From positions 37,457 through 69,456 of the forward strand of contig NZ_BAAAYN010000057.1 of assembly GCF_039536245.1 (NCBI RefSeq): a DNA stretch of 32,000 nt, read 5' to 3'. The notes beneath the pieces were generated by a model that made no database searches, had not been told where the DNA came from, and saw only the letters and a list, made by a program, of their open reading frames with translations. This DNA comes from Cryptosporangium minutisporangium. GTDB taxonomy: Bacteria; Actinomycetota; Actinomycetes; Mycobacteriales; Cryptosporangiaceae. How positions within the stretch are numbered: the stretch's first letter is position 1; the number at the start of each line of letters is the position of its first letter. The translations under genes and the position numbers were made by a program. Shown piece by piece: positions 2,605 to 21,465 of this stretch.

Positions 2605-2807
2605 GTTTCGAGGGTAGTTACTGAAGTTTCAGTGTTGTCCCGAGGTGCCAGGCGGGGTGCCCGAGTAACTGGGACAGCCGCCTCTGTTGGTCGGGTCGGC
2701 CGGACGGCCAGGGTAAGGAGCATCCAAGTCGCCGATGGCGACGGTCGGCGAGGACGCCGGTCGGCCATCGCGCGGCCATTCGGTTCTCCCCCTGAAGGGA
2801 TACCGCG

Positions 2808-3812
2808 ATGCTCCCGCAGGTCGTCCGCACAGAGTTCCTCCCCCTGGTGGAAACACAGCTGACGCACCAGGACGCCCTAATGGGACGCCCGAACGTGGTC
2901 GGGGTGGGCCTCGGCCACAAGTACAGCGGCGGTATCAACACCGGGGAGCGGGCGATCACGGTCCTCGTCCACCGCAAGATCGACGCCCGGTATCTCGCAC
3001 CGAAGGCGATGGTGCCGACCGAGCTCGAGGGCGTTCCGACCGACGTGCAGGAGGTCGGGCTGATCCGGGCCGGCGGTGGCCCGCCGCCCTGGGCCGACCG
3101 GGGCGCCACCGCGTCGCTGGGTGTCGGCCCGTTCCAGCTCGGACAGCGGGTGCGGCCGGCGTTCGCCGGGGTCAGCGTCGGGCACTACCGAGGCAACGCG
3201 GGCACGCTCGGCACCGGGTGCTTCGACGTGCTCCCGCAGGCCGCCGATCCCGGCCGGTACTACATCCTGAGCACCAACTACGCCCTGGCCGACTGCAACG
3301 CCGGCCGGACGGGGGACCCGATATTGCAGCCGGCCCTGGTCGACGGTGGCCGATACCCAGCCGACGTGATCGGCGGGCTGGTGCGCTTCGTGCCGATCCA
3401 GTTCCACGACGGTGCCCGCAAACCGGTCAACCTCGTGGACGCGGCGATCGCCGAGGCGGTGCACGACGCCGACAGTCGGGTCTATTGGGCCGGCGAGGTG
3501 AAGACGCTCAACGCAGCACCGAACATCAACGACACCGTCCAGAAGTGGGGGCGCACGACCACCTTCACGACCGGACACGTACTGAACATCAACGCGACCG
3601 TCGACGTGCACTACGACGGTGATCGGATCGCCCGGTTCGGCCAGCAGATCGTGACGACCGGCATGTCCGCCGGCGGAGACTCCGGCAGCCTCGTCACCGA
3701 CCCCGACGAGGGCGCCGTGGGCCTGCTGTTCGCCGGCTCCGGCCGGGTCAGCGTCCTCAACAACATCGCCGCCGTCCAATCGCTGCTGGGTGTCCGTGTC
3801 ACCGAGGACTAG
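2808..3812 (+). CDS. Chymotrypsin-fold (S1-like) serine-protease homologue without a signal peptide; His57-equivalent position is Tyr
   Basis: Pattern AGTLGTGCFDV...YYILSTNYALAD (where TNxHV is expected), VDAAIAE (Asp) and GDSGS (Ser). GAAGGGA lies 7 nt before ATG 2808. Confidence 0.8.
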   Translation: MLPQVVRTEFLPLVETQLTHQDALMGRPNVVGVGLGHKYSGGINTGERAITVLVHRKIDARYLAPKAMVPTELEGVPTDVQEVGLIRAGGGPPPWADRGATASLGVGPFQLGQRVRPAFAGVSVGHYRGNAGTLGTGCFDVLPQAADPGRYYILSTNYALADCNAGRTGDPILQPALVDGGRYPADVIGGLVRFVPIQFHDGARKPVNLVDAAIAEAVHDADSRVYWAGEVKTLNAAPNINDTVQKWGRTTTFTTGHVLNINATVDVHYDGDRIARFGQQIVTTGMSAGGDSGSLVTDPDEGAVGLLFAGSGRVSVLNNIAAVQSLLGVRVTED

Positions 3813-3892
3813 GCCACACCGGCGGCGTCGAACGACGACGTCCGGTAACGGGGGGTCGACCTCGCACTCGTGATCCGACGTGCCGCACGCAC

Positions 3893-3927
3893 GAGGAGAC
3901 GTCCCGCGACCCGCGGGACGCCTCCTC
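3893..3927 (+). terminator. Strong GC hairpin 80 nt downstream of the protease-like gene (possible U-tract-less terminator)
   Basis: 16-bp stem with one mismatch: GAGGAGACGTCCCGCG / CGCGGGACGCCTCCTC, loop ACC. No T-tract follows. Confidence 0.4.
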
Positions 3928-4357
3928 GCGCGGGAGCAGCCGGCGCGGGCCATCCGCCCGAACCGGACGCGTCCCGAGGCCGCACGCGAACCGATGCGGC
4001 ACGACGGCCGTGTGGAGTAGCCCGCGCTCCTGCGAGCGAGGGCGCCGAGAGGAGCTGGGGGCTGGTGAGGACATCGGACGCTGCTGCTGCTGTCCTCCGG
4101 GTGGGAGCCGGGATCCGAGGGGGATTCCGGCCCCCACTCGCGCCCCGCGGCAGCCCTGTCTTCGCCTCGCGCACCCCGCAACTGACGGGATGTCGTCATC
4201 GGACACGACGGGCGAGCGCGGCTGCGGTACAACCAGCCCGACAGGGTCGCCGGGTCGCGCACCCGCGCTCCGACGTCCTGCCGGATCCGAAGCTCATTCC
4301 TTCCGTGGAACACGCCCGACGGGACGTTCGCCCCGTCCACAGCGCAGAGGACTTACC

Positions 4358-4849
4358 GTGACCATCTCGGGCTCTGAAGTCACCACCACGTCGGAGACGG
4401 TGTTCGTCATCGACGTCAACGACCGGTTCGCGCACCTGTTCACCAGCGTCAAAGACCTGCTCGGCACGCATGAGGCCACCCACGCGGACCCCCCGCGAGG
4501 GCTCGACTTCTTCGACCAGGACGGCCACCGGCTCGCGCCGGCGTTCGACGACAAATGGCAGCTGACCGGCCTCGTCAAGACCAACGAGAAGCCGGACCCG
4601 GCGGCCGTGCAGGCGCGCCTCGCAACAGTGTTCGCGTTCCTCGCCCGGTACACCGCTGAGCACCCGACGCAGATCGCCGACGACTTCGGTCTGAGCGTCG
4701 ACGAGGCGCTCGGCGAGTTGCCGCAGCTGGACGGCAGGACGCTGGCCGAGAGCATCGCCGCGCTCAGCGCCGTGACCCACGCGGCACCGGAGCCGGGCAC
4801 GCAGGAAGACTCCGGGAGCTGGTTCCACAACTTGATGCACAACATCTGA
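4358..4849 (+). CDS. Hypothetical protein (163 aa), first gene of the kinase-astacin cluster
   Basis: C-terminal part of ORF 4010..4849. Third-position G/C becomes high only from GTG 4358 (GAGG at 4347-4350). The upstream part of that ORF is Arg/Cys-rich with poor GC3. No recognisable motifs. Confidence 0.6.
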   Translation: MTISGSEVTTTSETVFVIDVNDRFAHLFTSVKDLLGTHEATHADPPRGLDFFDQDGHRLAPAFDDKWQLTGLVKTNEKPDPAAVQARLATVFAFLARYTAEHPTQIADDFGLSVDEALGELPQLDGRTLAESIAALSAVTHAAPEPGTQEDSGSWFHNLMHNI

Positions 4850-4873
4850 CGCTCGACGACGAACGGTATCCGG

Positions 4874-7800
4874 ATGCGCATACCTTCTCTGCCCGGACTT
4901 TCGCCCCGCGGTGTCGCGGGGGCGCTGGTCGTCGTCCTGGTCGCGACGGCCGTCCTCATCGGACAGGTCGCGGCCACCGACGTCCCGGACGCAGGCCCGG
5001 TGGGGATCAGCATCGCGGTCGCCCTCAGCTGCACCGCGATGGGTGTGCTCATCCTTCTCGCCGTACCGCGGCACCTGGTCGGCCGGCTGCTGCTGGCAGC
5101 CGGCGCCAGCGCCACCGTCGGCACGCTCGCGGTGAGCTGGACCAGGTGGGAGCCGGTCGCCTGGCTCAGCCAGTGGACCTGGTGGCCGGCGTATGGGCTG
5201 CTTTTCCTCGCCCTCCTGGTCTTCCCCGACGGTCGATTACCCGGTCGTCGCTGGCGCGCGCTGGCAATCGTGCTCGTCGCGGTGACGATGCTCGGCGCAG
5301 TCGCGCTCGCCATCGGTGCGTTGGACGAACCGCGGACGCTTCTCAGCCAGGTCGGCGACAAGACTCCCTTCGCGCGCTTGCTCCTCCGGATCTTCGCGGT
5401 CGCGCTGTTGTTCACGGTTCTCGGGGCGATCGGCGTCCTGGCTGCACTGTGGTTCCGCTGGCGTCGCGCTGACGGGGAGACCCGGCAACAGCTCGCTTGC
5501 CTGCTTCCGGCGGTCGCCCTATTCCTGCTGGGCTGGTTCGCGGACTTTTTCAACCTGTCGGGCGGCTACGTGATCGCGACGGTCGCGGTCCCGCTGGGGA
5601 TGACCGTCGCCATCGTCCGGTACCGGCTCTACGACCTCGACCGGGTGCTCAATCGCACGCTCGTCTGGCTGGTCATGACGTTGCTGGTCGTCGTCGGCTT
5701 CGTCGCGATCGTCACCGTGCTCCGCGAGATCGTCATGCGGAACACGTCGGCCGACTCGATCTCGCTGGTCACCACCGGCCTGATCGCGATCGCGTACGCG
5801 CCGCTGCACCGCCGCGTCCAGCAGGGCGTCAACCACCTGCTCTACGGCGATCGGCACGATCCTTACAAGGTCATCGCCGGCCTCGGCGACGTGCTCGGCC
5901 AGACTGCCGAGCCGAATGCCGTGTTGCCGCTGCTCACCGGCACGATCGCCAGCTCGCTCCAGGTGCCGTACGTCGCCGTGGAGGTCGAGGAGCAGCGCGG
6001 CGCCCGCCTGCTCGCCTGGTACGGCCGGGTCGGACCCACCGTCCAGGCGTTCGACATGATCTCCCGGGGCGAGCACATCGGACGGCTACTCGTCTCGCCG
6101 CGGACCGACGGCGGGCACTTCACCCCGCGGGAGACCCGGCTGCTGGCCGACATCGCGTTGCACGCCGGGGTCGCCGTGGAGGCCAGCCGCCTCACCCGTG
6201 ACTTGCAGCTGTCGCGGGAGCGGTTGGTGCGCGCGCAGGAGGAGGAGCGTCGGCGACTGCGACGCGACCTCCACGACGGGCTGGGGCCGAGCCTCACCGG
6301 CATGTCGATGCAGGTGCGGGCCGCGCGGAAGTTGGCGGGTCCGGGGCGGGTCCGCGACATTCTGGACGCGCTCGCCGGTGACCTGGCCGCGTGTACGGCG
6401 GAGGTTCGGCAGCTCGTCGACGAGTTGCGTCCACCGGCGTTGGACCGCGGTTTGGCGGTGGCGCTGCGGGACGAGTGCCGCCGCTTCGACAGTGCGGCAC
6501 TCTCCGTCCAGCTGGATCTGGACGACGACCTCGACCGGTTGCCTGCCGCCGTCGAGGTGGCCGCGTACCGGGTCGTCGCGGAAGCGCTGAACAACGTCGC
6601 GCGGCACGCCAGCGCGCGGGCCTGCGTGGTCAGCGTGCGTCGCGGGCGTGATCTGACGATCGAGGTCAGCGACGACGGGGTGGGGATCAGCGGGCCGGTG
6701 CGGTCCGGGGTCGGGTTGGCCTCGATGCGGGACCGTGCCGGTGAGCTGGGTGGCGACTGCGAGATCCTGCCGGCGCAGCCGCACGGCACCACGGTGCGCG
6801 TCCACTTCCCGGCCGGGTCGCTGATGCTGGTGCGGCCGCCGTCGACGTCGGTCATCGAGCCGCCCGCCCTGGCGAACGGCAACGCCCCCCACGTTGCCGC
6901 AGCCCTCTCCCCGGCGCCGACCGCCCCCGCTGCGCCCGGCGGGTCGGCGCCGCCGCCGGGACCGGCCGCGAGCGGCGCGACCACGACGGTCGCCGACGTC
7001 ACGGCGGCGCCGGCGCTCACCACGAACACAACAGACACGCCGGCCGCCACCGACGGCTCCGCCACCGACGGCTCCGCCACCGACGGCTCCGCCACCGACG
7101 GCTCCGCGGCGGACGGTGCTGTCCCCGACGGTCCTGCCGAGGACGGCTCGGCGGACAGCCTGGCGAGCACGCGCGTGCAGCTCTGGGCCAGCGGTCTCGT
7201 TCCCTACGAGATCGCGCCCGGAATCGGCCCCGACGAGCACGTCGCCGACGCGATCGCCCACCTGGAGAGCCGCACCCACATCCGGTTCGTCCCGCGAACC
7301 ACCGAGAACGCCGTCGAACATCCGAACTACGTCCGCTTCGTGCTCGGCGACTCGTTCGCGTCCCAGGTCGGCTGCGTCGGCGGTGAGCAGCAGATCGAGC
7401 TGCTGGCCGGCGCGGAGATGGGACGCGTCCTGCACGAGATCGTCCACACGCTCGGCCGCTGGCACGAGCACTGCCGGGCCGACCGCGACCAGTACGTCAC
7501 CATCCAGTGGCCGAACATCGCACCGGAATCCCGGCCGAACTTCCTGATCCAAGCCACCGACCCGGATGACGGCCCGTACGACTACGAGTCGATCATGCAT
7601 TACCCCCGGATCGCCTTCTCGATCAACGGCGAGCGGACGCTGGAGACGCTCCGGCCGTTGCCCGCCGTGCCTCCGGGCCTCCCGGTGGGCCAGCGGCGCC
7701 GCCTCTCCGACGGCGACTGCCGGGTGATCGAGCGGATGTACCGCACCGCGCCCTCGGTGCCGTCGCCGGCGGTGGAGCGGCGCCTCACACAGCCGGTCGA

Positions 7801-8146
7801 CGCCGGCATGGTCACCGGAACCTTGCAGCTGCCGGCCGACGGGCCGTCCGGACGCGCGGCCACCGTCACGGTCATCATTCGCGACACGACGACAACGGGG
7901 GGTCCGATGCGAAGCGTGGGCGAGGCGGTGCTGGTGGACGTCCCGCTCGCGCCCGGCGGGAGCGTTCCGTTCCGGGTGCCGGTGGCGGAGGTCGATCCGG
8001 CGGCGATCTACACCGTCGAGGCGCATGTGGACGTTCAAGGTGACGGCGCGATCGCGACCGGAGACCTGGTCACCGCCCGGGCGTGCGCGGTGCTGACCGG
8101 CGGCGCGCCGACCGAGCTCGCCGTTCCGATGACGAGCGTGGTGTGA
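4874..8146 (+). CDS. Multi-pass sensor histidine kinase (HisKA_3 + HATPase_c) fused to an astacin-family (M12A) zinc metalloprotease domain and a C-terminal YbaY/YscW-like domain
   Basis: Single 1090-codon frame. H-box RRDLHDGLGPSL (His codon 6272-6274). N-box AEALNNVARHA and DDGVGI. Pro/Ala/Thr/Asp linker. HEIVHTLGRWHEHCRADRD (7433-7489). Met-turn SIMHY (7589-7603). YbaY-like tail from about 7811. Confidence 0.85.
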   Translation: MRIPSLPGLSPRGVAGALVVVLVATAVLIGQVAATDVPDAGPVGISIAVALSCTAMGVLILLAVPRHLVGRLLLAAGASATVGTLAVSWTRWEPVAWLSQWTWWPAYGLLFLALLVFPDGRLPGRRWRALAIVLVAVTMLGAVALAIGALDEPRTLLSQVGDKTPFARLLLRIFAVALLFTVLGAIGVLAALWFRWRRADGETRQQLACLLPAVALFLLGWFADFFNLSGGYVIATVAVPLGMTVAIVRYRLYDLDRVLNRTLVWLVMTLLVVVGFVAIVTVLREIVMRNTSADSISLVTTGLIAIAYAPLHRRVQQGVNHLLYGDRHDPYKVIAGLGDVLGQTAEPNAVLPLLTGTIASSLQVPYVAVEVEEQRGARLLAWYGRVGPTVQAFDMISRGEHIGRLLVSPRTDGGHFTPRETRLLADIALHAGVAVEASRLTRDLQLSRERLVRAQEEERRRLRRDLHDGLGPSLTGMSMQVRAARKLAGPGRVRDILDALAGDLAACTAEVRQLVDELRPPALDRGLAVALRDECRRFDSAALSVQLDLDDDLDRLPAAVEVAAYRVVAEALNNVARHASARACVVSVRRGRDLTIEVSDDGVGISGPVRSGVGLASMRDRAGELGGDCEILPAQPHGTTVRVHFPAGSLMLVRPPSTSVIEPPALANGNAPHVAAALSPAPTAPAAPGGSAPPPGPAASGATTTVADVTAAPALTTNTTDTPAATDGSATDGSATDGSATDGSAADGAVPDGPAEDGSADSLASTRVQLWASGLVPYEIAPGIGPDEHVADAIAHLESRTHIRFVPRTTENAVEHPNYVRFVLGDSFASQVGCVGGEQQIELLAGAEMGRVLHEIVHTLGRWHEHCRADRDQYVTIQWPNIAPESRPNFLIQATDPDDGPYDYESIMHYPRIAFSINGERTLETLRPLPAVPPGLPVGQRRRLSDGDCRVIERMYRTAPSVPSPAVERRLTQPVDAGMVTGTLQLPADGPSGRAATVTVIIRDTTTTGGPMRSVGEAVLVDVPLAPGGSVPFRVPVAEVDPAAIYTVEAHVDVQGDGAIATGDLVTARACAVLTGGAPTELAVPMTSVV
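7046..7150 (+). repeat. In-frame 15-bp tandem repeat (4 perfect + 3 degenerate copies) encoding (ATDGS)n in the kinase-protease linker
   Basis: GCCACCGACGGCTCC occurs at 7046, 7061, 7076 and 7091 (identical copies). Degenerate copies start at 7106, 7121 and 7136. Confidence 0.9.
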
Positions 8147-8184
8147 TTCCGGTGAGCGCGTGGGCGTTCCAGGGAGGCACACCG

Positions 8185-8832
8185 GTGGACGAGCCGAAGC
8201 GGGTCCTCATCGTCGACGACCACCCCGTGGTCCGCCGCGGCCTGAAAGTGATGCTGGAGGGCGAGGCCTGGGTGAGCGAGGTCGCCGAGGCGGCCAGCGT
8301 CGAAGAGGCCGTCCGCGAGGCGATCACCTGCCACTCCGACGTCATCGCGATGGACGTCGTCCTGCCCGACGGCGACGGGATCGACGCCACCCGCCGGATC
8401 CTCGAGGCGTGTCCCGACGCGGCGGTCCTGATGCTCACGATGGCCGACGACGACGACATCGTGGCCAAGGCCCTCAACGCCGGCGCCCGGGGGTTCCTGC
8501 TCAAGGACACCGATCCGGACATGGTGATCGATGCGCTGCGAACGGTTGCCAGCGGGGGAGTGGTCCTCGGGCCGCGCGTCGGACCGACCGTCCTCACCGC
8601 GCTGCGCCGGGCCCCGGCGGTGCTCCCGCCTCCGTTCGACCAGCTCACGACGCGGGAGCTCGACATCGTCAACCGGCTGGCGTGCGGCGACACCAACGCG
8701 CAGATCGCCCGCCACCTCAACGTCAGCGAGAAGACGATCCGTAACCAGATGTCGGCCGTGTTCAACAAGCTGAACGTCAGCGACCGCGTGCAGGCGGCGT
8801 TATTGGCCCGCGACGCGGGGATCGTCCGTTAG
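8185..8832 (+). CDS. NarL/LuxR-family response regulator (REC + HTH)
   Basis: ORF 8083..8832. Preferred start is GTG 8185 (GGGAGG at 8171-8176). KRVLIVDDHPVVRRGL, MDVVLPDGDG, and a C-terminal LTTRELDIVNRLACGDTNAQIARHLNVSEKTIRNQ helix-turn-helix. Confidence 0.9.
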   Translation: MDEPKRVLIVDDHPVVRRGLKVMLEGEAWVSEVAEAASVEEAVREAITCHSDVIAMDVVLPDGDGIDATRRILEACPDAAVLMLTMADDDDIVAKALNAGARGFLLKDTDPDMVIDALRTVASGGVVLGPRVGPTVLTALRRAPAVLPPPFDQLTTRELDIVNRLACGDTNAQIARHLNVSEKTIRNQMSAVFNKLNVSDRVQAALLARDAGIVR

Positions 8833-8901
8833 CGACATGGTGTGACGTTGCCATCACGCGTTTCCGCTCCGGTTCCACGGGGGATGCCCCAGGGGCCGGC
8901 A

Positions 8902-10428
8902 TCAGCCGACGCGAAAGTGGAGTCGGCCATCCCGCACGAGGGTCGGCGCTGGAAGTCGGGCCAGGAGGTCATCGCGATGTTCGAACTGCACTGTGGAGCC
9001 TGCGCCCACCCGGGAGCCTCGAGCGACAACCGGGCCGAGGTCCAGACGCTGACCGATCTGCACAACAGCCTGGTGCACCGTGGCAGCCCGGTCGCCAAAC
9101 TCCGTCGCCGACGCTTCGGGCGTCCCCGCAGCGCTGCCGCGTGAACCGATCGGGCTACCGCTGCGCGCCGGTGTAGCAGCCCAGGCGGCGACGAATACCC
9201 CGGCCCAGATCAGGCCGATCAGCAGTGCCGCGGTCGTACTGCTGACAGTTCCCCAGCCCAGGTAGACCCGGTCCGCGGCGAGCAGGATCACGATCGCGGC
9301 ACCGAGCGTCCACGTCGATCCGCGGGCGATCCGGCTGCGACGCTTCCGAGCCACCGTCCAGGTGGCGAGCGCGATCGCGGTCGTGGAGATCGCGTGCTGG
9401 ATCGCGAACAGGTGGTCGGTGCCGGCGATGCCCTCGGCGGCGTTCAGCACGAGACCGAGGATGACCAGCGGAAGTACCGCACCACCGGAGACGAGAACGC
9501 CGAGCGGTCCCTGGTGTCGGGGTGAGTGCACCGGCCGGAGCAGCACCACGACGGCCGCGGCCGCAACGACGGCGTACGACGGGGTGGAGAGCAGCAGTGC
9601 CTTCGCGACGAGGGCGAGGCCGCTGTCGTACTGCGAGGTCAACGCCGCCGCGACCGGCTCGTCGAGCTGCGGCAGCCCACCGGCCCACACCGCGACCGCC
9701 ACCAGTGCGGTGAGCACCCCGCCCACGAGCGTCAACGCCACGATCAGCGCAGCGCTGCTCCACGGGCGGACGCCCACGACCCGGGCGAACAGGCGGGCAG
9801 GTAGGTCCGGGTGGCGCCCCAGCCACCGTCCGGCCGCGATCCCGGCGACGACTGCCACCGCCACCATGACCAGCCCCAGCGACGCTTGCCCCGCGACCGC
9901 GGACACCTGCTGGTACGAGCTGCCCGCCAGGTACCCGGCGCCGACGTAGAGGCCCGACCACAGCAGCCCGGCCGGGACGCTGTAGCGCAGGAACGCCCCG
10001 GGCGACATCCCACCGGCACCGGCCAGGCGCGGCACGAGCGTCCGGGCGCCGACCGCCCAGCGCGCGACGAACACCGCCCGGCCACCGTGCCGCCCCAGGA
10101 GGGCTGCTGCGCGGGTCAGGGCTCCGTCCAGTCGGCGCTGCAGGAACCCGCCGCGCCGCGCGCTGCCTGCGGCCGGGCGCCCCGCCGTGCGTCGTCCGAC
10201 GACGTAACCGGCCCCGTCGCCCGCGATCACCGCGACCATGGCAGTGGCCAGGGCGATCGGAAGGTTGAGCGTCCCGCTGTAGGCGAGGAAGCCCAGGCCG
10301 AGCGCGGTCGAGACGCTCGGGAGCACGACCCCGGCGAGTACCGCGGGTTCGGCCGCGAGGATCACCGCGGCGAGCGCCACGACGAGCGGGCCGGGAAGGC
10401 CGAGTACGCCGTCCAGCAGGCTCTCCAC
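8902..10428 (-). CDS. DedA (VTT/SNARE-associated) domain fused to a degenerate PAP2-like membrane domain
   Basis: ORF 8902..10614. Preferred start is GTG 10428 (GGAGG 7 nt upstream). DedA-like N-half (VLPSVSTALGLGFLAYSG..FVARWAVGARTLVP). C-half carries PAP2-like DRVYLGWGTVSS where SRxxxxxHxxxD is expected. Confidence 0.75.
   Translation of the reverse strand: MESLLDGVLGLPGPLVVALAAVILAAEPAVLAGVVLPSVSTALGLGFLAYSGTLNLPIALATAMVAVIAGDGAGYVVGRRTAGRPAAGSARRGGFLQRRLDGALTRAAALLGRHGGRAVFVARWAVGARTLVPRLAGAGGMSPGAFLRYSVPAGLLWSGLYVGAGYLAGSSYQQVSAVAGQASLGLVMVAVAVVAGIAAGRWLGRHPDLPARLFARVVGVRPWSSAALIVALTLVGGVLTALVAVAVWAGGLPQLDEPVAAALTSQYDSGLALVAKALLLSTPSYAVVAAAAVVVLLRPVHSPRHQGPLGVLVSGGAVLPLVILGLVLNAAEGIAGTDHLFAIQHAISTTAIALATWTVARKRRSRIARGSTWTLGAAIVILLAADRVYLGWGTVSSTTAALLIGLIWAGVFVAAWAATPARSGSPIGSRGSAAGTPEASATEFGDRAATVHQAVVQIGQRLDLGPVVARGSRVGAGSTVQFEHRDDLLARLPAPTLVRDGRLHFRVG
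8977..9144 (+). CDS. Possible small protein (55 aa) with CxxC...HxxxxH
   Basis: ATG 8977 is preceded by AGGAGG (8963-8968) at 8-nt spacing. MFELHCGACAHPGASSDNRAEVQTLTDLHNSLVH... GC3 is about 80%, lower than in confident genes. Lies fully antisense to the tail of the DedA/PAP2 ORF. Confidence 0.3.
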   Translation: MFELHCGACAHPGASSDNRAEVQTLTDLHNSLVHRGSPVAKLRRRRFGRPRSAAA

Positions 10429-10788
10429 GTGGCGACCTCCGGCAGATCCGGCTCCGACGGCCGGGTGATGGTCAGCCTTCCGTCGCGCGTCGTTTCTGAC
10501 ATCCGGGAGCACCCTGGCGCCAACCCTGAGATAGCTCAGCCGTGCTGCATGGCGGACCGCCTTCCCCCCGTGTCGTCGTCTGTCGTCCCTGGTACACGGC
10601 CATACGCGGGCCAAGGTTCGGACGGACGGAGGAGCGCTGCCGAGTCGGGAGTGGGTGGCGGTGAAGAGCGGGCGAAGACCAAACTTTGGGATTTTTCGCC
10701 GTTCAAAGATGCGACGGCCGTCAATTGAGGCAACGATGGAGTCGTCGGTAGCGGTGAGACAAGGTCCAGGCGTCTATCCGGTGAGGAT

Positions 10789-12393
10789 GTGCGTTTGTCT
10801 CGATCTGTCGCGTCCCAGTTATCCGGGTGGTCGCCTGCCCGGGCATTCGGTGACCCGACCTCGAGCCGCCGCTGCTCGGCTGCGGCCGCCGGTCTGTTGA
10901 CGGTGGGGCTGCTCCTGGGTTCGGCGGGTGCCGCCCAGGCCGAGCCGACGCCGACCCCGAGCAGCTCCGCGCAGAAACCGGCCGGCCCATCGGCGTCCCC
11001 CGATTCGGGAACGCCCGAGCGGCCGACGACGGGGACCACGGCCAAGCCGCGGACCGTCGCGGAGCGGGTGAAGCAGCAGCAGATCGCGGCGGAGGCGGTC
11101 GCCGAGCGGCTGGAAGAGGCGAAGGCCGAGCTGGCCACCGCCCGCGACGACCGGGCTCGCGCGGAGGCCCGCAGCACGGTCGCGGCGCAGCGGGTGATCG
11201 CGGCCCGGGCGGAGGTCAACAGCTGGGCGCGCGACTCGTACATCGCGCAGGCCGAACAACCCTCCGGACTGCCGGTCGACCCGCGTCGCCGGATGTTCGG
11301 TCACCCCGACCCGCAAACGGACACCGCCGAAGCGACCCTGGCCACCGCCGAGGCCCAGGACCGGTCGGCGGCGAGCGACCTGGCCGTGGCTACCGCGCTG
11401 GCGGAGACGGCGCAGGCTCGCGTGCAGCGGCTCGGCGCCGACCTGTCCCGCCGCGCGACCACGATCCGGGAACTCCGGACCGGGCGGGAGGACGTGCTCG
11501 CGGCCGCGCAGTCCGACCAGGAGGCGGTGGACGCGGCGCGCTCCTCCGAGTACATCCGGGACGCGCAAGGCTCCGCCGGTGACGCGGCGACGAAGGCGCT
11601 CGAGTTCGCGCTGGCGCAGCGCGGCAAGCCGTACGTGTGGGGAGCAGAGGGGCCCGACACCTACGACTGCTCCGGGTTGGTGCAGACCGCCTACGCGGCG
11701 GCCGGGGTCTCGCTGCCGAGGACCGCGCGTCCGCAGTACCGGGCCACGCCGGTCGTCGAGACGACCGCGCTGCTCCCCGGTGACCTGCTGTTCTTCGCGA
11801 CGAACAAGTCGGACTGGAACACCATTCACCACGTGGCGATCTACCTCGGCAACGGCAAGATGCTGCACGCGCCGACGACCGGCGACGTCGTCCGGGTGGC
11901 GCCGGTGTGGTGGGAGGAGTTCTACGCGGCGACTCGCGTCGTGCCCGGCCGGAAGACGCCGAAGCCGTCGCCTGCGCCGTCGCCGGAGAAGCCCGTTGCG
12001 CCGCCGGTGAAGCCCGCGCCGTCGCCGTCGCGTTCCGCGCCGGGCTCCCCGTCGCCGTCGGATTCCCCGTCGGGGTCGGCCTCGCCCTCGGGCTCCGGTT
12101 CGCCGTCGGGTTCGCCGTCGACGTCGCCGAGCGGGACGCCGTCGCCGGCGCCAGGGCCGAGCGGTACCGGCTCGCCGTCGCCGAGTGCAGGCTCCCCGTC
12201 GGCGGGCTCCCCACCGGCGAGCACTCAGCCGCCGGCATCCGAGCCGTCGGGATCCGCGCGGCCGAGCGAGCCTCCGTGCGACCCCGATGCGTCGCCCAGC
12301 GGATCACCCACCCCGTCGGCGTCCGCGTCGCCGAGCCCGAGCCCGAGCCCGTCGGGAAGCCCGTCCCCGAGCCCGACGCCCTGCCGCGACTGA
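10789..12393 (+). CDS. Secreted NlpC/P60 (C40) cell-wall hydrolase, RipA-like, with coiled-coil N-region and Pro/Ser-rich tail
   Basis: Signal-like SAAAAGLLTVGLLLGSAGAAQA. Ala/Glu/Arg-rich helical region. Catalytic core GKPYVWGAEGPDTYDCSGLV...HHVAIYLGNGKMLHAP. About 150-aa (SP)n tail. Start is GTG 10789 or TTG 10795. Confidence 0.85.
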   Translation: MRLSRSVASQLSGWSPARAFGDPTSSRRCSAAAAGLLTVGLLLGSAGAAQAEPTPTPSSSAQKPAGPSASPDSGTPERPTTGTTAKPRTVAERVKQQQIAAEAVAERLEEAKAELATARDDRARAEARSTVAAQRVIAARAEVNSWARDSYIAQAEQPSGLPVDPRRRMFGHPDPQTDTAEATLATAEAQDRSAASDLAVATALAETAQARVQRLGADLSRRATTIRELRTGREDVLAAAQSDQEAVDAARSSEYIRDAQGSAGDAATKALEFALAQRGKPYVWGAEGPDTYDCSGLVQTAYAAAGVSLPRTARPQYRATPVVETTALLPGDLLFFATNKSDWNTIHHVAIYLGNGKMLHAPTTGDVVRVAPVWWEEFYAATRVVPGRKTPKPSPAPSPEKPVAPPVKPAPSPSRSAPGSPSPSDSPSGSASPSGSGSPSGSPSTSPSGTPSPAPGPSGTGSPSPSAGSPSAGSPPASTQPPASEPSGSARPSEPPCDPDASPSGSPTPSASASPSPSPSPSGSPSPSPTPCRD

Positions 12394-17915: not shown

Positions 17916-18875
17916 TCAGGCCGGCACTCCGAACAGGCGGAGCAGCGACGGGTCGGCGAACGTCACGCAGCGCTGGATCAGGCCGCCGGCCACCGTGAAC
18001 ACCTGGAGCGAGTGAGCCCTGACCCCTCCGGTGGCCGGATCCGGTGCGTAGGCGGCCAGGGCCGGGCTCCCGTTGGCGCGTACGGGCAGCAGGCGCCAGC
18101 CGGACCCGCGCAGATCGAACACCCGCTCCATGAACTCGCGGTAGTGCGCCCGGCCGGTGAGCCAGAGCGCTACCGGCGGCATCTCCAGCACGACGTCGTC
18201 GGCGAGCAGCCGAGTCAGTCCGGGCACGTCGGCGGCCTCGAACGCGGCCAGATACCGCTCGACCACGGCACGTTCGTCGGGGTCGGCGGGCTCGCGCCAC
18301 TCGTCCAACGCCGGGCCGGCGGCCCGCAGCGTGGCCCTGGCGCGCTGCAGACTGCTGTTCACCGACGCCACGCTGCTGTCCAAGACGTGCGCCACCTCGC
18401 TGGCCGGTAGCTGCAGCACATCGCGCAGCACCAGCGCCGCGCGCTGCCGCGGGGGCAGGAGTTGCAAGGCGGCGACCAGGGCCAGCCGCAGCCCCGCGCG
18501 CTGCTCGGTGACGTCCGCGGGGTCGCCCCAGGCCGGGTCGCCCAGCCGGGCGTCCGGGAACGGTTGCAACCACGGGACGTCGAGGCTCGGTGTCAGCGCC
18601 GCCTGCGGGTCGTCGCCGGGCGGGCCCAACCCGCTCGGCAACGGACGGCGGACCCGGCCCTGCAACGCGCTGAGGCAGGCGTTGGTGGCGATCCGGTGCA
18701 GCCAGGTGCGCAGCGACGCCCGCTGCGGGTCGTACCGGTCGGCCGCCCGCCAGGCCCGCACCAGCGTCTCCTGGACCAGGTCCTCGGCCTCGTCGAACGA
18801 TCCGAGCATCCGATAGCAGTGCGCCAGCAGGTCACCGCGGTAGGCCTCGTGCTCCTCCTGCGTCGGCGCCGCCAC
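17916..18875 (-). CDS. ECF sigma factor with fused C-terminal NTF2/SnoaL-like domain (SigG / TIGR02960 / ECF56-like)
   Basis: [28 protein letters not shown] (region 2), RQRAALVLRDVLQLPASEVAHVLDSSVASVNSSLQRAR (region 4), then an NTF2-like extension of about 120 aa. GTG start. Confidence 0.9.
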   Translation of the reverse strand: MAAPTQEEHEAYRGDLLAHCYRMLGSFDEAEDLVQETLVRAWRAADRYDPQRASLRTWLHRIATNACLSALQGRVRRPLPSGLGPPGDDPQAALTPSLDVPWLQPFPDARLGDPAWGDPADVTEQRAGLRLALVAALQLLPPRQRAALVLRDVLQLPASEVAHVLDSSVASVNSSLQRARATLRAAGPALDEWREPADPDERAVVERYLAAFEAADVPGLTRLLADDVVLEMPPVALWLTGRAHYREFMERVFDLRGSGWRLLPVRANGSPALAAYAPDPATGGVRAHSLQVFTVAGGLIQRCVTFADPSLLRLFGVPA

Positions 18876-18994
18876 CCGCGCGAGCCTACGCCCGCAAATC
18901 TCGCTGCCCGAGACCGATGAGTTCGTCGCCCGGCCTCGGTACGTGCTGGATGAGGGCGGCCGGACCTGAGCCGCCGCGGCAGGAGGGAAGAGCG

Positions 18995-19570
18995 ATGGGC
19001 GACGTCATCGTCATTCAATTCACCACGTTGGACGGTGTGGTCTCCGACCCCGACGGGCGCTGGGGGACTGGCCACGGCGGCTGGGCGTTCCGGTACGGGC
19101 CGGGGCCGGTCAGCGACGACAAGTTCCGCCTCGGAGCGCGGATGGAGCACGGCGTCCAGCTCTACGGGCGGCGGACGTGGGAGCACTTCGCCCGGCTCTG
19201 GCCGAGTCGCGACGGCAGCTACGCCCAGCTGATGAACGCCGTGCCCAAACGCGTCGCCACCCGCACCGGCGTCGACCCGGCTGCGTGGTCGAACTCGGCG
19301 GCGATCGACGGCGACCCGGTGGTCTGGGCCGCCGACGAGCGCACCCGGCGCGACGTCGTCGTGATCGGCAGCCTGAGCTTGGTGCACACGCTGGCGGCGG
19401 CCGATCTGGTCGACGAGTACCGGTTGCTCACGTTCCCGACTGTCGTCGGGGCAGGCGACCAGCTGTTCGCCGCGGACGCGCCCGCCGACTTCCGGTTCAC
19501 GCTGGTGGAGCCCGCCGACATGGCGACGCTGACCGTGCTCCGCCGCCAACCGGCGGCGGAGCCCCGGTGA
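18995..19570 (+). CDS. Dihydrofolate-reductase-family (RibD C-terminal domain) protein
   Basis: ORF 18917..19570. Start is ATG 18995 (CAGGAGGGAAG upstream). IQFTTLDGVV..DPDG, LYGRRTWEHF, DEYRLLTFPTVVGAGDQLF. Confidence 0.8.
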   Translation: MGDVIVIQFTTLDGVVSDPDGRWGTGHGGWAFRYGPGPVSDDKFRLGARMEHGVQLYGRRTWEHFARLWPSRDGSYAQLMNAVPKRVATRTGVDPAAWSNSAAIDGDPVVWAADERTRRDVVVIGSLSLVHTLAAADLVDEYRLLTFPTVVGAGDQLFAADAPADFRFTLVEPADMATLTVLRRQPAAEPR

Positions 19571-19593: not shown

Positions 19594-20412
19594 CTACGGA
19601 CGCAGATCGGTTCTCGCTGCTCCGGTGTCGGTGTCGGCCGGCCAGGACACGTGCTGGTGCACCATCTGCCAGTCGCCTCCGAACCGTCGGAACACCCGGG
19701 TGCCGCGGGACCAGGTCTCGGCGACCGAGCCGTCCGGCTGCTCCGCGGTCATCCGGTTGAGTCCCCAGGAGACGGCCAGGTCGCCGCGGGCGACGATCCG
19801 CAGGTCGGGCACGGTCCAGGTAACGGTGCCGTCGACGGCGTCCAACCCGTCCGCGCAGACCGCGCGGACGCTGTCGAGCCCGGTGTACTGCAGCGGCGCG
19901 TCGTGCTCGTAGGAGACGACGTCCTCGGCGATGCCCGCCATCATGCCGTCCAGGTCCTTGGCGACCGTGTCGTCGAACCACCGCCGGTGCAGGTCCTCGA
20001 CGGCCAGCTCCGCCGCGCGGTCGCTGCCCGACGCGTCGGTGAACGAGTGGTGCTCGTGCGCCACCACCCATCGGCCGTCGTCCCGGCGCAGGCCGAGCGT
20101 CAGCCGAAGCCGACGGTCCGGATCGGCGGCCAGGTGCTCCGGCGTCCCGCAGCGCAGCAGCGCGTGGGCGAACGCGACGTCCGCACCCGCAGTGACCTCG
20201 AGCGACGTGATCTCGAACAGCGCTCCGGTCGCCAGCCACTCGAAGAACGGCGGCCAGCTCTTTCGGTACGCGTCGAGTCCGCGCACGCCCCTCTCCGGCG
20301 GCGGCACGTCGAACATCACGATGTCCTCGGCGTGGTCGGCCAGCACGCCGTCCAGGTCACCCGCCTGCACGGCGAGCGCCCAGCGTTCGATGAGTTCCCG
20401 AATCTCGTCCAT
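19594..20412 (-). CDS. Tandem NTF2-like (SnoaL/DUF4440-type) two-domain protein
   Basis: Two repeats of the pattern IRELIERWALAVQAGDLDGV...DGRWVVAHEHHS and VEDLHRRWFDDTVAKDLDGM...GGDWQMVHQHVS. Its start lies 30 nt downstream of the sigma-factor gene's stop. Confidence 0.8.
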   Translation of the reverse strand: MDEIRELIERWALAVQAGDLDGVLADHAEDIVMFDVPPPERGVRGLDAYRKSWPPFFEWLATGALFEITSLEVTAGADVAFAHALLRCGTPEHLAADPDRRLRLTLGLRRDDGRWVVAHEHHSFTDASGSDRAAELAVEDLHRRWFDDTVAKDLDGMMAGIAEDVVSYEHDAPLQYTGLDSVRAVCADGLDAVDGTVTWTVPDLRIVARGDLAVSWGLNRMTAEQPDGSVAETWSRGTRVFRRFGGDWQMVHQHVSWPADTDTGAARTDLRP

Positions 20413-20442
20413 GCCACTAGAACCCCGGGAAGGGGCTCGAAC

Positions 20443-21393
20443 TCATCGCTCCCGCGGAAGATTCTCCGGAAGACCGAACGCGGTCAGATCGGCGGTGAGG
20501 AACGAGACCACCTCGGCGACCCGGCCGCTCCGCACCGTGAGGACGTCCAGCCCGGACGGCCGGTAGACGTCGCCCTCGAGCAGATAGGTTCCGAACGCGA
20601 GCTGGCCGTTCGCCACCGTGGGCAGGAACCGCCAGCGATACGTCAGCGGTGCCTCGACCAGGAACCGCCGGATCGCGTCCACCCCCTGGTACCAGGCCAC
20701 CTCCGGCGGCATCGAGTACCGCGCGTCGTCGGCGAGCAGCGCGACGATCGTGTCGACGTCGCCGGCCTCCCACGCGGCCGCGTACCGCCGGGCCAGCTCT
20801 CGCACGGTCGGATCCTCGGGCGCCGCGGACGCGGACACCGCAGGCAACGCCCGGCGGGCGCGCTGCAGGGCGCTGTTGACCGCCGGGACCGAGGTGTCGA
20901 GGAACTCGGCCACCTCCCGCGCGGAGAACCCCTGCGCTTCGCGCAGGAGCAGCACCGCCCGCTGCAAACCCGGGAGGTGCTGGAGCGCGGCGACGAACGC
21001 GACCTCGAGGCTCTCCCTCGCCAGGGTCCCGCTCTGCGGATCCGGGTACGGCTCCAGCCAATGGGGGTCCGACGTCGCGCGCAGGTCGGTCGGGAGCTCC
21101 CGTCGCGCTCGCCCCTTCAACAGCGTGAGGCACCGGTTGGTGGCGATCCGGTACAGCCACGGACGCAGGGAGCGGCCGGGATCGTGCTCGTCGAACCGGT
21201 CGAGACCCCGCCAGGCCCGGACCAGGGTCTCCTGCACGGCGTCGTCCGCGTCGTGCACCGATCCGAGCATGCGGTAGCAGTGTGCGTGCAGCTCCGCGCG
21301 GAGGGGAGCGGCGAGTGTGCTGAACGCGTCGGCGTCACCGGCGCGGGCGGCGGCCAGCACCGACAGTGTTTCGGTCGAGAACCGGCCGCTCAT
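20443..21393 (-). CDS. Second ECF sigma factor with fused NTF2/SnoaL-like domain (paralogue of 17916-18875)
   Basis: [41 protein letters not shown] and [38 protein letters not shown], plus an NTF2-like C-terminal extension. Confidence 0.9.
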
Positions 21394-21402
21394 TCCCTGC
21401 CT

Positions 21403-21455
21403 CCTCGCGTCGGGGCGCCGCCCCAGCCTGCTACAGCCCTCTCTCCGACGCGAGG
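21403..21455 (-). other. Hairpin between the oxidoreductase stop and the sigma-factor start; the 3' arm overlaps the SD
   Basis: Perfect 11-bp arms CCTCGCGTCGG (21403-21413) and CCGACGCGAGG (21445-21455) with a 31-nt loop. On the minus-strand RNA the downstream arm runs into GAGGAGG, 6 nt before ATG 21393. Confidence 0.4.
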
Positions 21456-21465
21456 CCGCAGCGGA

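Follow-up and report, generated by a model that had tools for sequence, protein, structure and literature searches.

A predicted cytoplasmic astacin protease coupled to an actinobacterial sensor kinase module in Cryptosporangium

How might a protease be built into a bacterial two-component pathway? This question is raised by a 32,000-nucleotide (nt) stretch of DNA from Cryptosporangium minutisporangium, referred to here as the window, in which a sensor histidine kinase and an astacin-type zinc protease domain are encoded as one protein. The window is a high-GC actinomycete chromosome segment (guanine-plus-cytosine [GC] content, ∼70%), and all coordinates are those of the whole stretch. Five open reading frames (ORFs) follow one another on its plus strand: an S1-like protein (2808-3812; 334 amino acids [aa]), a protein that we call p163 (4358-4849; 163 aa), the kinase-astacin protein (4874-8146; 1090 aa), a NarL-type response regulator (8185-8832; 215 aa), and a small Cys-His protein (8977-9144; 55 aa). 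The gaps are 24 nt between p163 and the kinase, 38 nt between the kinase and the regulator, and 144 nt between the regulator and the 55-aa ORF, and third-position GC is 0.90 to 0.94 in all four large genes. The original prediction, made from the sequence alone, had proposed this row of genes as a protease-linked two-component module, had not recognized it as a described system, and had offered a phosphorylation-controlled proteolytic switch or a protease paired with a decoy or substrate trap as possible readings. All five co-directional ORFs were present with the coordinates and gaps that it gave, and all five are real; position 2605, at which the proposed module began, is merely the first base past the stop codon of the upstream SGL gene. 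A literature search likewise found no description of this module, of kinase-linked or intracellular astacins, or of CHAT-linked two-component systems. The new finding, which we regard as solid, is a prodomain-less, predicted cytoplasmic astacin that is coupled, by adjacency or by fusion, to one actinobacterial family of sensor kinases that is accompanied by p163.

The kinase-astacin protein

The 1090-aa protein is encoded by one continuous ORF (4874-8146, plus strand). Because third-position GC keeps a single frame throughout this interval in a frame plot, there is no frameshift between the kinase and the astacin. A hydropathy scan placed approximately 9 to 10 membrane segments within the first 320 residues and none past residue 330, marking 4874-5833 as a polytopic membrane sensor region. 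Between this membrane domain and the dimerization and histidine phosphotransfer domain lies a cytoplasmic region (5846-6193) that is weakly assigned as GAF-like from the NCBI names of its orthologues ("GAF domain-containing sensor histidine kinase"); it had no Pfam match. The kinase core (6245-6814) comprises HisKA_3 (6245-6442; 57 bits), with the H-box His at 6272-6274, and HATPase_c (6554-6814; 43 bits), and its H, N, G1, and G2 boxes are intact (DLHDG, EALNNV, DDGVGI, and GVGLAS). Since no membrane segment follows residue 330, the astacin should lie on the cytoplasmic side together with the ATP-dependent kinase core.

The two enzymatic parts are joined by a Pro/Ala/Thr-rich linker of approximately 110 residues (6836-7168), within which Tandem Repeats Finder detected a perfect 15-nt tandem repeat (7044-7107; 4.3 copies) that is in frame and encodes GSATD repeats. 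The nearest homologues of the whole protein, from Cryptosporangium species, were 67 to 82% identical to it, and linker sequence and length varied among the Cryptosporangium homologues. The same HisKA_3, HATPase_c, and Astacin architecture was present in eight full-length homologues (996 to 1150 aa) from Cryptosporangium or metagenomes, whose linkers differ, and for this reason the fusion is no assembly artifact. It has been retained across at least 25 to 30% sequence divergence with its catalytic motifs intact. One 726-aa protein (P0008), identical to residues 1 to 726, was considered as evidence against the fusion and set aside: it ends exactly at the 15-nt tandem repeat, and because eight homologues with other linkers are fused, it is read as coming from another assembly in which the repeat interrupted the contig or the protein call.

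The astacin (M12A) catalytic domain occupies 7184-7744 (plus strand) and scored 124 bits against Pfam Astacin (cut-off, 22.5). Its zinc motif, HEIVHTLGRWHE, at 7433-7468 (aa 854 to 865) and its Met-turn, SIMHY, at 7589-7603 (aa 906 to 910) are both intact, and both are conserved in all fused and adjacent-gene homologues, every one of which keeps the HExxH, the third His, the family Glu, and the Met-turn with its Tyr. An AlphaFold2 (AF2) model of the last 331 residues had a mean predicted local distance difference test (pLDDT) score of 80, with values above 90 in the catalytic core. The modeled domain matched crayfish astacin (1ast), ZHE1 (3lqb), and BMP1 (3edh) with template modeling (TM) scores of 0.81 to 0.84 at 32 to 36% identity. 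The NCBIfam model LegP (NF045530) gave 182.9 bits, covering profile positions 56 to 243 only; as this is below the equivalog cut-off of 300, the domain is not a LegP member. After the catalytic domain, the last ∼115 residues (7796-8140, plus strand) were modeled as a β-sandwich with a YscW/AspS pilotin-like fold (Foldseek match to 5wec, TM score of 0.68 to 0.70 and E value of 3e-5, with a weak Pfam YscW match).

The conserved signaling unit and its astacin partner

The gene upstream of the kinase encodes p163 (4358-4849, plus strand; third-position GC, 0.92), a soluble accessory protein that lacks hydrophobic segments, matches neither Pfam nor NCBIfam, and belongs to a small actinobacterial family. 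Residues H26, R87, and H157 are invariant in its alignment, and an HNxxH motif lies at the C terminus. An exhaustive profile search of 1.8 billion representatives placed the family in 113 clusters at 50% identity. The AF2 model of p163 (pLDDT, 77.6) returned nothing below an E value of 0.2 when compared with the PDB by Foldseek; a PAS/GAF-like fold was suggested only by weak Foldseek matches and was not used.

Downstream of the kinase is a NarL/GerE-type response regulator (8185-8832, plus strand; Pfam Response_reg, 90 bits, and GerE, 59 bits; NCBIfam NarL-like). Its translation contains DD, AMDVVLPD, LTMAD, and LLKD, representing the acidic pocket and the phospho-acceptor Asp, Thr, and Lys, and by their motifs the kinase and regulator are ordinary HisKA_3/NarL two-component members. 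The regulator was 94 to 96% identical across Cryptosporangium. The kinase-regulator junction (38 nt; 8143-8184) was almost invariant in Cryptosporangium and in L087, a more distant metagenome contig, with indels limited to in-frame changes of 3 nt. GGGAGG precedes the GTG at 8185, and the regulator could alternatively start at the GTG at 8143, which overlaps the kinase stop codon as GTGA.

Conservation of this neighborhood was assessed in a scan of one genome per GTDB species. The p163 alignments (A3 and A4) held no stretch conserved enough to seed the scan, and the kinase sensor region (residues 1 to 440) was used instead. tblastn confirmed 213 relatives, and neighborhoods were counted in the best 80 of these 213 loci. 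A p163-family ORF ended just upstream of the kinase on the same strand in 69 of the 80 loci, and p163 was directly upstream in 57 of the 59 loci whose sensor was at least 45% identical. The NarL-type regulator adjoined the kinase in 70 of 80, and most of the others were short contigs. The 80 loci span the Micromonosporaceae, Pseudonocardiaceae, Nocardioidaceae, Nonomuraea, Virgisporangium, and other Actinomycetota. p163, the kinase, and the NarL-type regulator are a conserved actinobacterial signaling unit.

The p163 upstream regions of other genera yielded a palindrome, (T)GTCCC-N8-GGGAC(A), which precedes the p163 start by 60 to 195 nt (for example, at -163 in L015 and at -76 in L043). It was present in 36 of 79 loci, belonging to several families (L003 to L094), and is a candidate operator of the NarL-type regulator. 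A weight-matrix scan for the palindrome found no site in the window or in any Cryptosporangium locus.

An astacin was encoded in 10 of the 80 kinase loci, fused to the kinase in three and as a separate gene in seven. The fusion is restricted to Cryptosporangium. In six of the seven nonfused loci, the astacin gene directly follows the kinase gene (L039 from Pseudonocardiaceae, L043 from Nocardioidaceae, L050 from a Mycobacteriales metagenome-assembled genome, L055 and L056 from Nocardioides, and L054), and in L043, L054, and L055 its start codon overlaps the kinase stop codon (ATGA/GTGA). In the seventh (L013, Pseudonocardiaceae), the astacin gene lies just upstream of p163. One protein, P0250, was considered as a free-standing astacin encoded between kinase and regulator; its frame continues without a stop across an Ala/Pro linker as far as the contig begins, so that it is probably a truncated fusion that is not counted as a split gene.

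The linkage was then approached from the protease side: the astacins linked to kinases were aligned, and the alignment was used to scan metagenome contigs from JGI/ENA. Nineteen loci encoded an astacin at least 51% identical to the kinase-linked type. The kinase was immediately upstream in all 15 of the contigs that contained upstream sequence (15/15), in another frame and with a gap of 35 to 95 nt or an overlap, and p163 was upstream of the kinase wherever the contig reached. No such kinase was found in the 18 reverse-scan loci with astacins of 39% identity or less. Searches from either side thus show a specific association, and a Rosetta-stone fusion of the two partners would account for the protein seen in Cryptosporangium. 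The proposal that the 163-aa protein, the kinase-astacin, and the NarL-type regulator belong together is therefore borne out by their conserved neighborhood, and the proposed protease link of the two-component module holds for the astacin, by adjacency or fusion, in several actinobacterial families and from both search directions.

The kinase-linked astacins differ in architecture from their relatives. Astacins are described as secreted or extracellular enzymes with prodomains, the minimal architecture being a signal peptide plus a prodomain with an FxGDI Asp switch (2023 review, PMC9848320); bacterial members are sporadic and come mostly from animal-associated bacteria, and the word "kinase" does not occur in the text of that review (PMC9848320). 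No FxGDI prodomain motif was found upstream of the catalytic domain in the kinase-linked astacins, which do not have the signal peptide-prodomain arrangement. The separate astacin genes start 84 to 91 aa before the zinc motif, at "M..LWP.G.VPY," which is the start of the mature catalytic domain. In most free-standing bacterial relatives, FEGDI was present and the zinc motif was preceded by at least 138 aa; the exceptions (P0286, P0287, and P0291) had 89 to 94 aa and no FEGDI match. At the two disulfide columns, 79% and 88% of the free-standing relatives had Cys, but all eight fused forms had F/Y and A/G. An unusual Cys directly after the third zinc His (HEHC) is conserved among the fused forms. 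The β-sandwich also accompanies kinase-linked astacins, with tblastn matches after the astacin in L013, L039, L043, L050, and L088 to L104. It lies inside the same ORF as the astacin in L039, and it may be a separate small gene in L013, L043, and L050, where the matches (947-1273, 10552-10947, and 10619-10972, respectively) lie beyond the astacin stop codon.

Genes and sequences around the unit

The 334-aa protein at the upstream end (2808-3812, plus strand; third-position GC, 0.90) is a NAL1-like S1-fold protein with PDB matches to SGPA-type proteases and NAL1 and a score of 28.5 bits against Pfam NAL1_N (cut-off, 27). It has no N-terminal hydrophobic segment or signal peptide, and its GDSGS aligns with Streptomyces SGPA-type S1 proteases and with the NAL1 "GDSGSL." The catalytic triad of NAL1 is H234/D291/S385 (PMC12012508). 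In a motif-only alignment of "ILSTNYALAD" with the NAL1 "FLTNHHVAVD," Tyr or Ala, not His, stands at the catalytic position in either register, and the His-less "STNYAL" is invariant in five Cryptosporangium orthologues, which are 85 to 86% identical. After the regulator, this is the most conserved gene of the five. The earlier description of a signal-less chymotrypsin-fold protein with GDSGS and Tyr at the catalytic His position was right, with Tyr or Ala depending on the register.

The 545-nt spacer between this gene and p163 (3813-4357) is longer than the ∼175- to 185-nt spacers of other Cryptosporangium genomes, and its extra sequence showed no coding periodicity and no Rfam match. The only conserved block (65 to 106 nt within 4032-4156) contains two consecutive GC-rich hairpins (4056-4139, plus strand), which RNAalifold folded with 25 pairs at -42.6 kcal/mol, a second stem of 18 bp, and minimal covariation. 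The pair looks like terminators that have no U-tract. In twelve Pseudonocardiales-type loci, another gene occupies the slot upstream of p163: a TPR-CHAT caspase-like gene (CHAT, 133 bits), whose His/Cys dyad is intact, separates p163 from the regulator (L005 at 4581-7370, L035, L037, L039, L050, L090, L091, and L094 are among them). A fusion of TPR-CHAT to p163, annotated in L005 as one in-frame 1130-aa protein, was rejected: the junction contains the palindrome, and in L039 the two are in different frames, so that these are probably two genes linked by adjacency only. This parallel keeps alive the original idea that the S1-like gene belongs with the module and is no proof of it.

The small ORF at 8977-9144 (plus strand) encodes an unannotated 55-aa protein. 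Five genomes and L087 share its AGGAGG Shine-Dalgarno sequence and its ATG and TGA codons, and substitutions at codon positions 1/2/3 numbered 13/12/61, versus 26/24/28 in the upstream spacer. This conservation and the third-position bias of the substitutions identify it as a real gene, confirming what had been noted of a 55-codon Cys-His ORF with a strong AGGAGG. The protein has a CxxC...HNxxxH motif (HCGxC...HNxxxH), a basic tail, and a C-terminal LAA/AAA in six of six versions, an ending that resembles an ssrA-like degradation tag. It had no Pfam, NCBIfam, PADLOC, or PDB match, the exact sequences were absent from a 15-billion-protein collection, and the gene appears to be called by no pipeline. 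It lies entirely within the open antisense tail of the convergent DedA/VTT-PAP2 ORF (8902-10614, minus strand), and public annotations of related genomes run the VTT gene over it, leaving the small gene uncalled.

Whether these two genes belong to the module was a matter of neighborhood conservation, a check on which the five genes divided. It was positive for p163, the kinase, the regulator, and the astacin and negative for the S1-like gene and the 55-aa ORF beyond Cryptosporangium-type loci. Within 8 kb of the kinase, no S1-like gene was found in 75 non-Cryptosporangium loci, and the 55-aa ORF was likewise not found near the kinase in these 75, outside the Cryptosporangium lineage. In Cryptosporangium the whole ∼15-kb region is syntenic, from the MFS gene through SGL to VTT, and co-occurrence of either gene with the module is therefore uninformative about function. 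Although both genes are real, the proposed membership of the S1-like pseudoprotease and the 55-aa protein in the module is not supported by conservation and is unproven.

By Pfam, the flanking genes encode an MFS transporter, an SMP-30/gluconolactonase, the convergent DedA/VTT plus PAP2 membrane protein mentioned above (Pfam and NCBIfam), which is no part of the module, whose minus-strand codon periodicity starts only from ∼9170 and whose tail is without coding constraint, and an NlpC/P60 protein, with ordinary regulators and dehydrogenases farther downstream. A PAP2 membrane protein is also convergent to the regulator in Plantactinospora (L003, 11064-15994), there with Exo_endo_phos, BrkB, and diacylglycerol-kinase genes; the shared convergence may hint at an envelope-lipid theme, and the Cryptosporangium and Plantactinospora PAP2 proteins showed no sequence homology at an E value of 1e-5. 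Elsewhere in the window are two extracytoplasmic function-type sigma factors with C-terminal SnoaL-like domains (17919-19004 and 20446-21465, both minus strand) and, between them, a SnoaL/DUF4440 protein (19597-20442). Rfam and sigma-70 promoter scans of the window gave no matches, and a terminator scan was at chance level (3 found versus 1.9 expected).

Explanations weighed and known systems compared

We consider it probable, with moderate confidence, that the locus is a p163-kinase-regulator module with a dedicated cytoplasmic astacin that acts within the pathway; the kinase-astacin partnership itself is held much more confidently than any particular substrate. The astacin would be cytoplasmic and held at the membrane beside the kinase, the fused form hanging on the disordered Pro/Ala/Thr linker at the cytoplasmic end. 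There it may act as a proteolytic branch, tuning or resetting signaling by cleavage of p163, of the regulator, or of the kinase linker, or it may provide a second, nontranscriptional output of the sensor. Because there is no prodomain, its activity would have to be controlled by tethering, by the β-sandwich domain, or by the state of the kinase. Several observations weigh against this explanation. The astacin is optional, since just 10 of 80 loci carry one, and the core works without it. The role of p163 is a guess, because the protein has no recognizable fold. In a crude neighbor-joining tree the fused and split clades both fell in an "HEH" astacin group without being strict sisters, and one or two (independent) recruitment events of the astacin are possible; the shared β-sandwich domain favors a common origin. 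The cytoplasmic placement is read from hydropathy. Finally, the palindrome, which could have tied the S1-like gene and the 55-aa ORF to the regulon of the module, is absent from Cryptosporangium.

A bolder proposal, which we put forward only tentatively, is that the module is a hitherto unrecognized type of signaling unit in which the membrane kinase directly gates tethered cytoplasmic proteases: the astacin at its kinase end and, at its p163 end, a CHAT caspase or the S1-like protein. A single sensor would in that case control regulated proteolysis as well as transcription by way of the NarL-type regulator, and the fusion would make this the first astacin known to work inside the cell under the control of a kinase.

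We think it unlikely that all five products, from the S1-like protein through p163, the kinase-astacin, and the regulator to the 55-aa ORF product, work together as a five-gene system, with, for example, the inactive S1 fold as a decoy or substrate trap and the 55-aa protein as a substrate or modulator of the astacin. The five genes are co-directional and keep their order in five Cryptosporangium genomes, the 55-aa ORF recurs in L087, the S1-like protein is second only to the regulator in conservation, and in Pseudonocardiales a protease-fold TPR-CHAT protein is encoded upstream of p163. However, gene order is uninformative where MFS, SGL, and VTT genes are equally syntenic, neither end gene accompanies the kinase in the 75 other loci, conserved hairpins part the S1-like gene from p163, and the 55-aa ORF has a Shine-Dalgarno sequence of its own beyond a 144-nt spacer that is not conserved.

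It is rather improbable that the module is a stress or conflict system in which the kinase senses envelope damage or infection and the astacin and TPR-CHAT are destructive effectors that stop growth or kill the cell. In its favor, different lineages have brought two unrelated cytoplasmic proteases into this one module, the actinomycetes that carry it are filamentous or multicellular, and conflict systems typically use CHAT and trypsin-like effectors (Kaur et al. 2020, PMC7159879). The systems of that study, however, are NTPase or vWA centered, and a histidine kinase is not among the vWA-associated effectors that its authors report (PMC7159879). PADLOC matched only the regulator, through generic receiver and helix-turn-helix profiles, and had no match for any of the other four proteins; the chromosomal context is ordinary, with stable synteny and no variable island.

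The linkage could also be incidental, with the astacin an ordinary cotranscribed cytoplasmic peptidase carried as cargo and the fusion a neutral accident, and this we find quite improbable. The majority of the kinase family has no astacin, and the linker is long, disordered, and variable; against this stand an adjacency recovered in both search directions and in several families at only 35 to 45% protein identity, the start/stop codon overlaps, and a fusion kept through at least 25 to 30% divergence with its catalytic motifs intact. That the astacin domain is noncatalytic, serving the kinase as a sensory domain or scaffold that binds zinc or a ligand, is very improbable: the missing prodomain, the lost canonical disulfide, and the conserved HEHC Cys of the fused forms would suit it, but all catalytic elements are conserved in every fused and adjacent form and the AF2 fold model is confident over the active site.

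Several known systems resemble parts of this locus. The plant protein NAL1 (NARROW LEAF 1) shares with the 334-aa protein the NAL1_N domain, an S1 barrel with GDSGS, and the absence of a signal peptide in the latter; the 334-aa protein differs in being bacterial and much shorter and in having Tyr or Ala in place of H234 (PMC12012508). The conflict systems of Kaur et al. (PMC7159879) resemble the module in the TPR-CHAT found inside it in Pseudonocardiales and in having multicellular actinomycete hosts, but theirs are built from STAND, vWA, and NTPase components and the present one from a histidine kinase and a response regulator, outside any defense-island context.

On the signaling side, the nearest likeness is to LiaFSR-type systems, which share an intramembrane-type HisKA_3 kinase and a NarL regulator with a small accessory gene directly upstream. 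The accessory protein LiaF sits in the membrane, unlike p163, which is soluble and of no known family; in addition, the sensor here has ∼10 membrane segments and a GAF-like region. To our knowledge, the known LiaFSR-like three-component systems are without a protease. The proposed logic also resembles that of ImmA/IrrE-type proteases, zinc proteases paired with an Xre-type repressor: in both, a dedicated cytoplasmic zinc protease is encoded beside the signaling or transcription component that is, or here may be, its target. The protease fold differs, however, and the partner here is a two-component system rather than an Xre-type repressor. For the two-component field, the locus offers a natural example of a protease attached to a sensor kinase, and it defines an uncharacterized three-gene core (p163, kinase, and regulator) with a candidate operator site, the kinase being present in at least 213 species-representative genome stretches. 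The fused and split arrangements provide matched systems for experiments.

On the protease side, the LegP model scores 183 bits on this astacin without reaching its cut-off of 300. The domain matches the astacin family M12A in HExxHxxGxxHE, in SxMHY, in fold, and in the Pfam profile. It differs from that family in having no signal peptide or FxGDI prodomain, in the loss of the Cys pair, and in its predicted cytoplasmic location. For the astacin field, the result is a soil-actinomycete clade that has shed signal peptide, prodomain, and, in the fused forms, disulfide and is locked genetically to one histidine-kinase family. This extends the biology of the astacins and raises the issue of how an intracellular member is restrained. 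Compared with the astacins of animal-associated bacteria, those described here belong to soil actinomycetes and are fused to, or encoded directly after, a histidine kinase.

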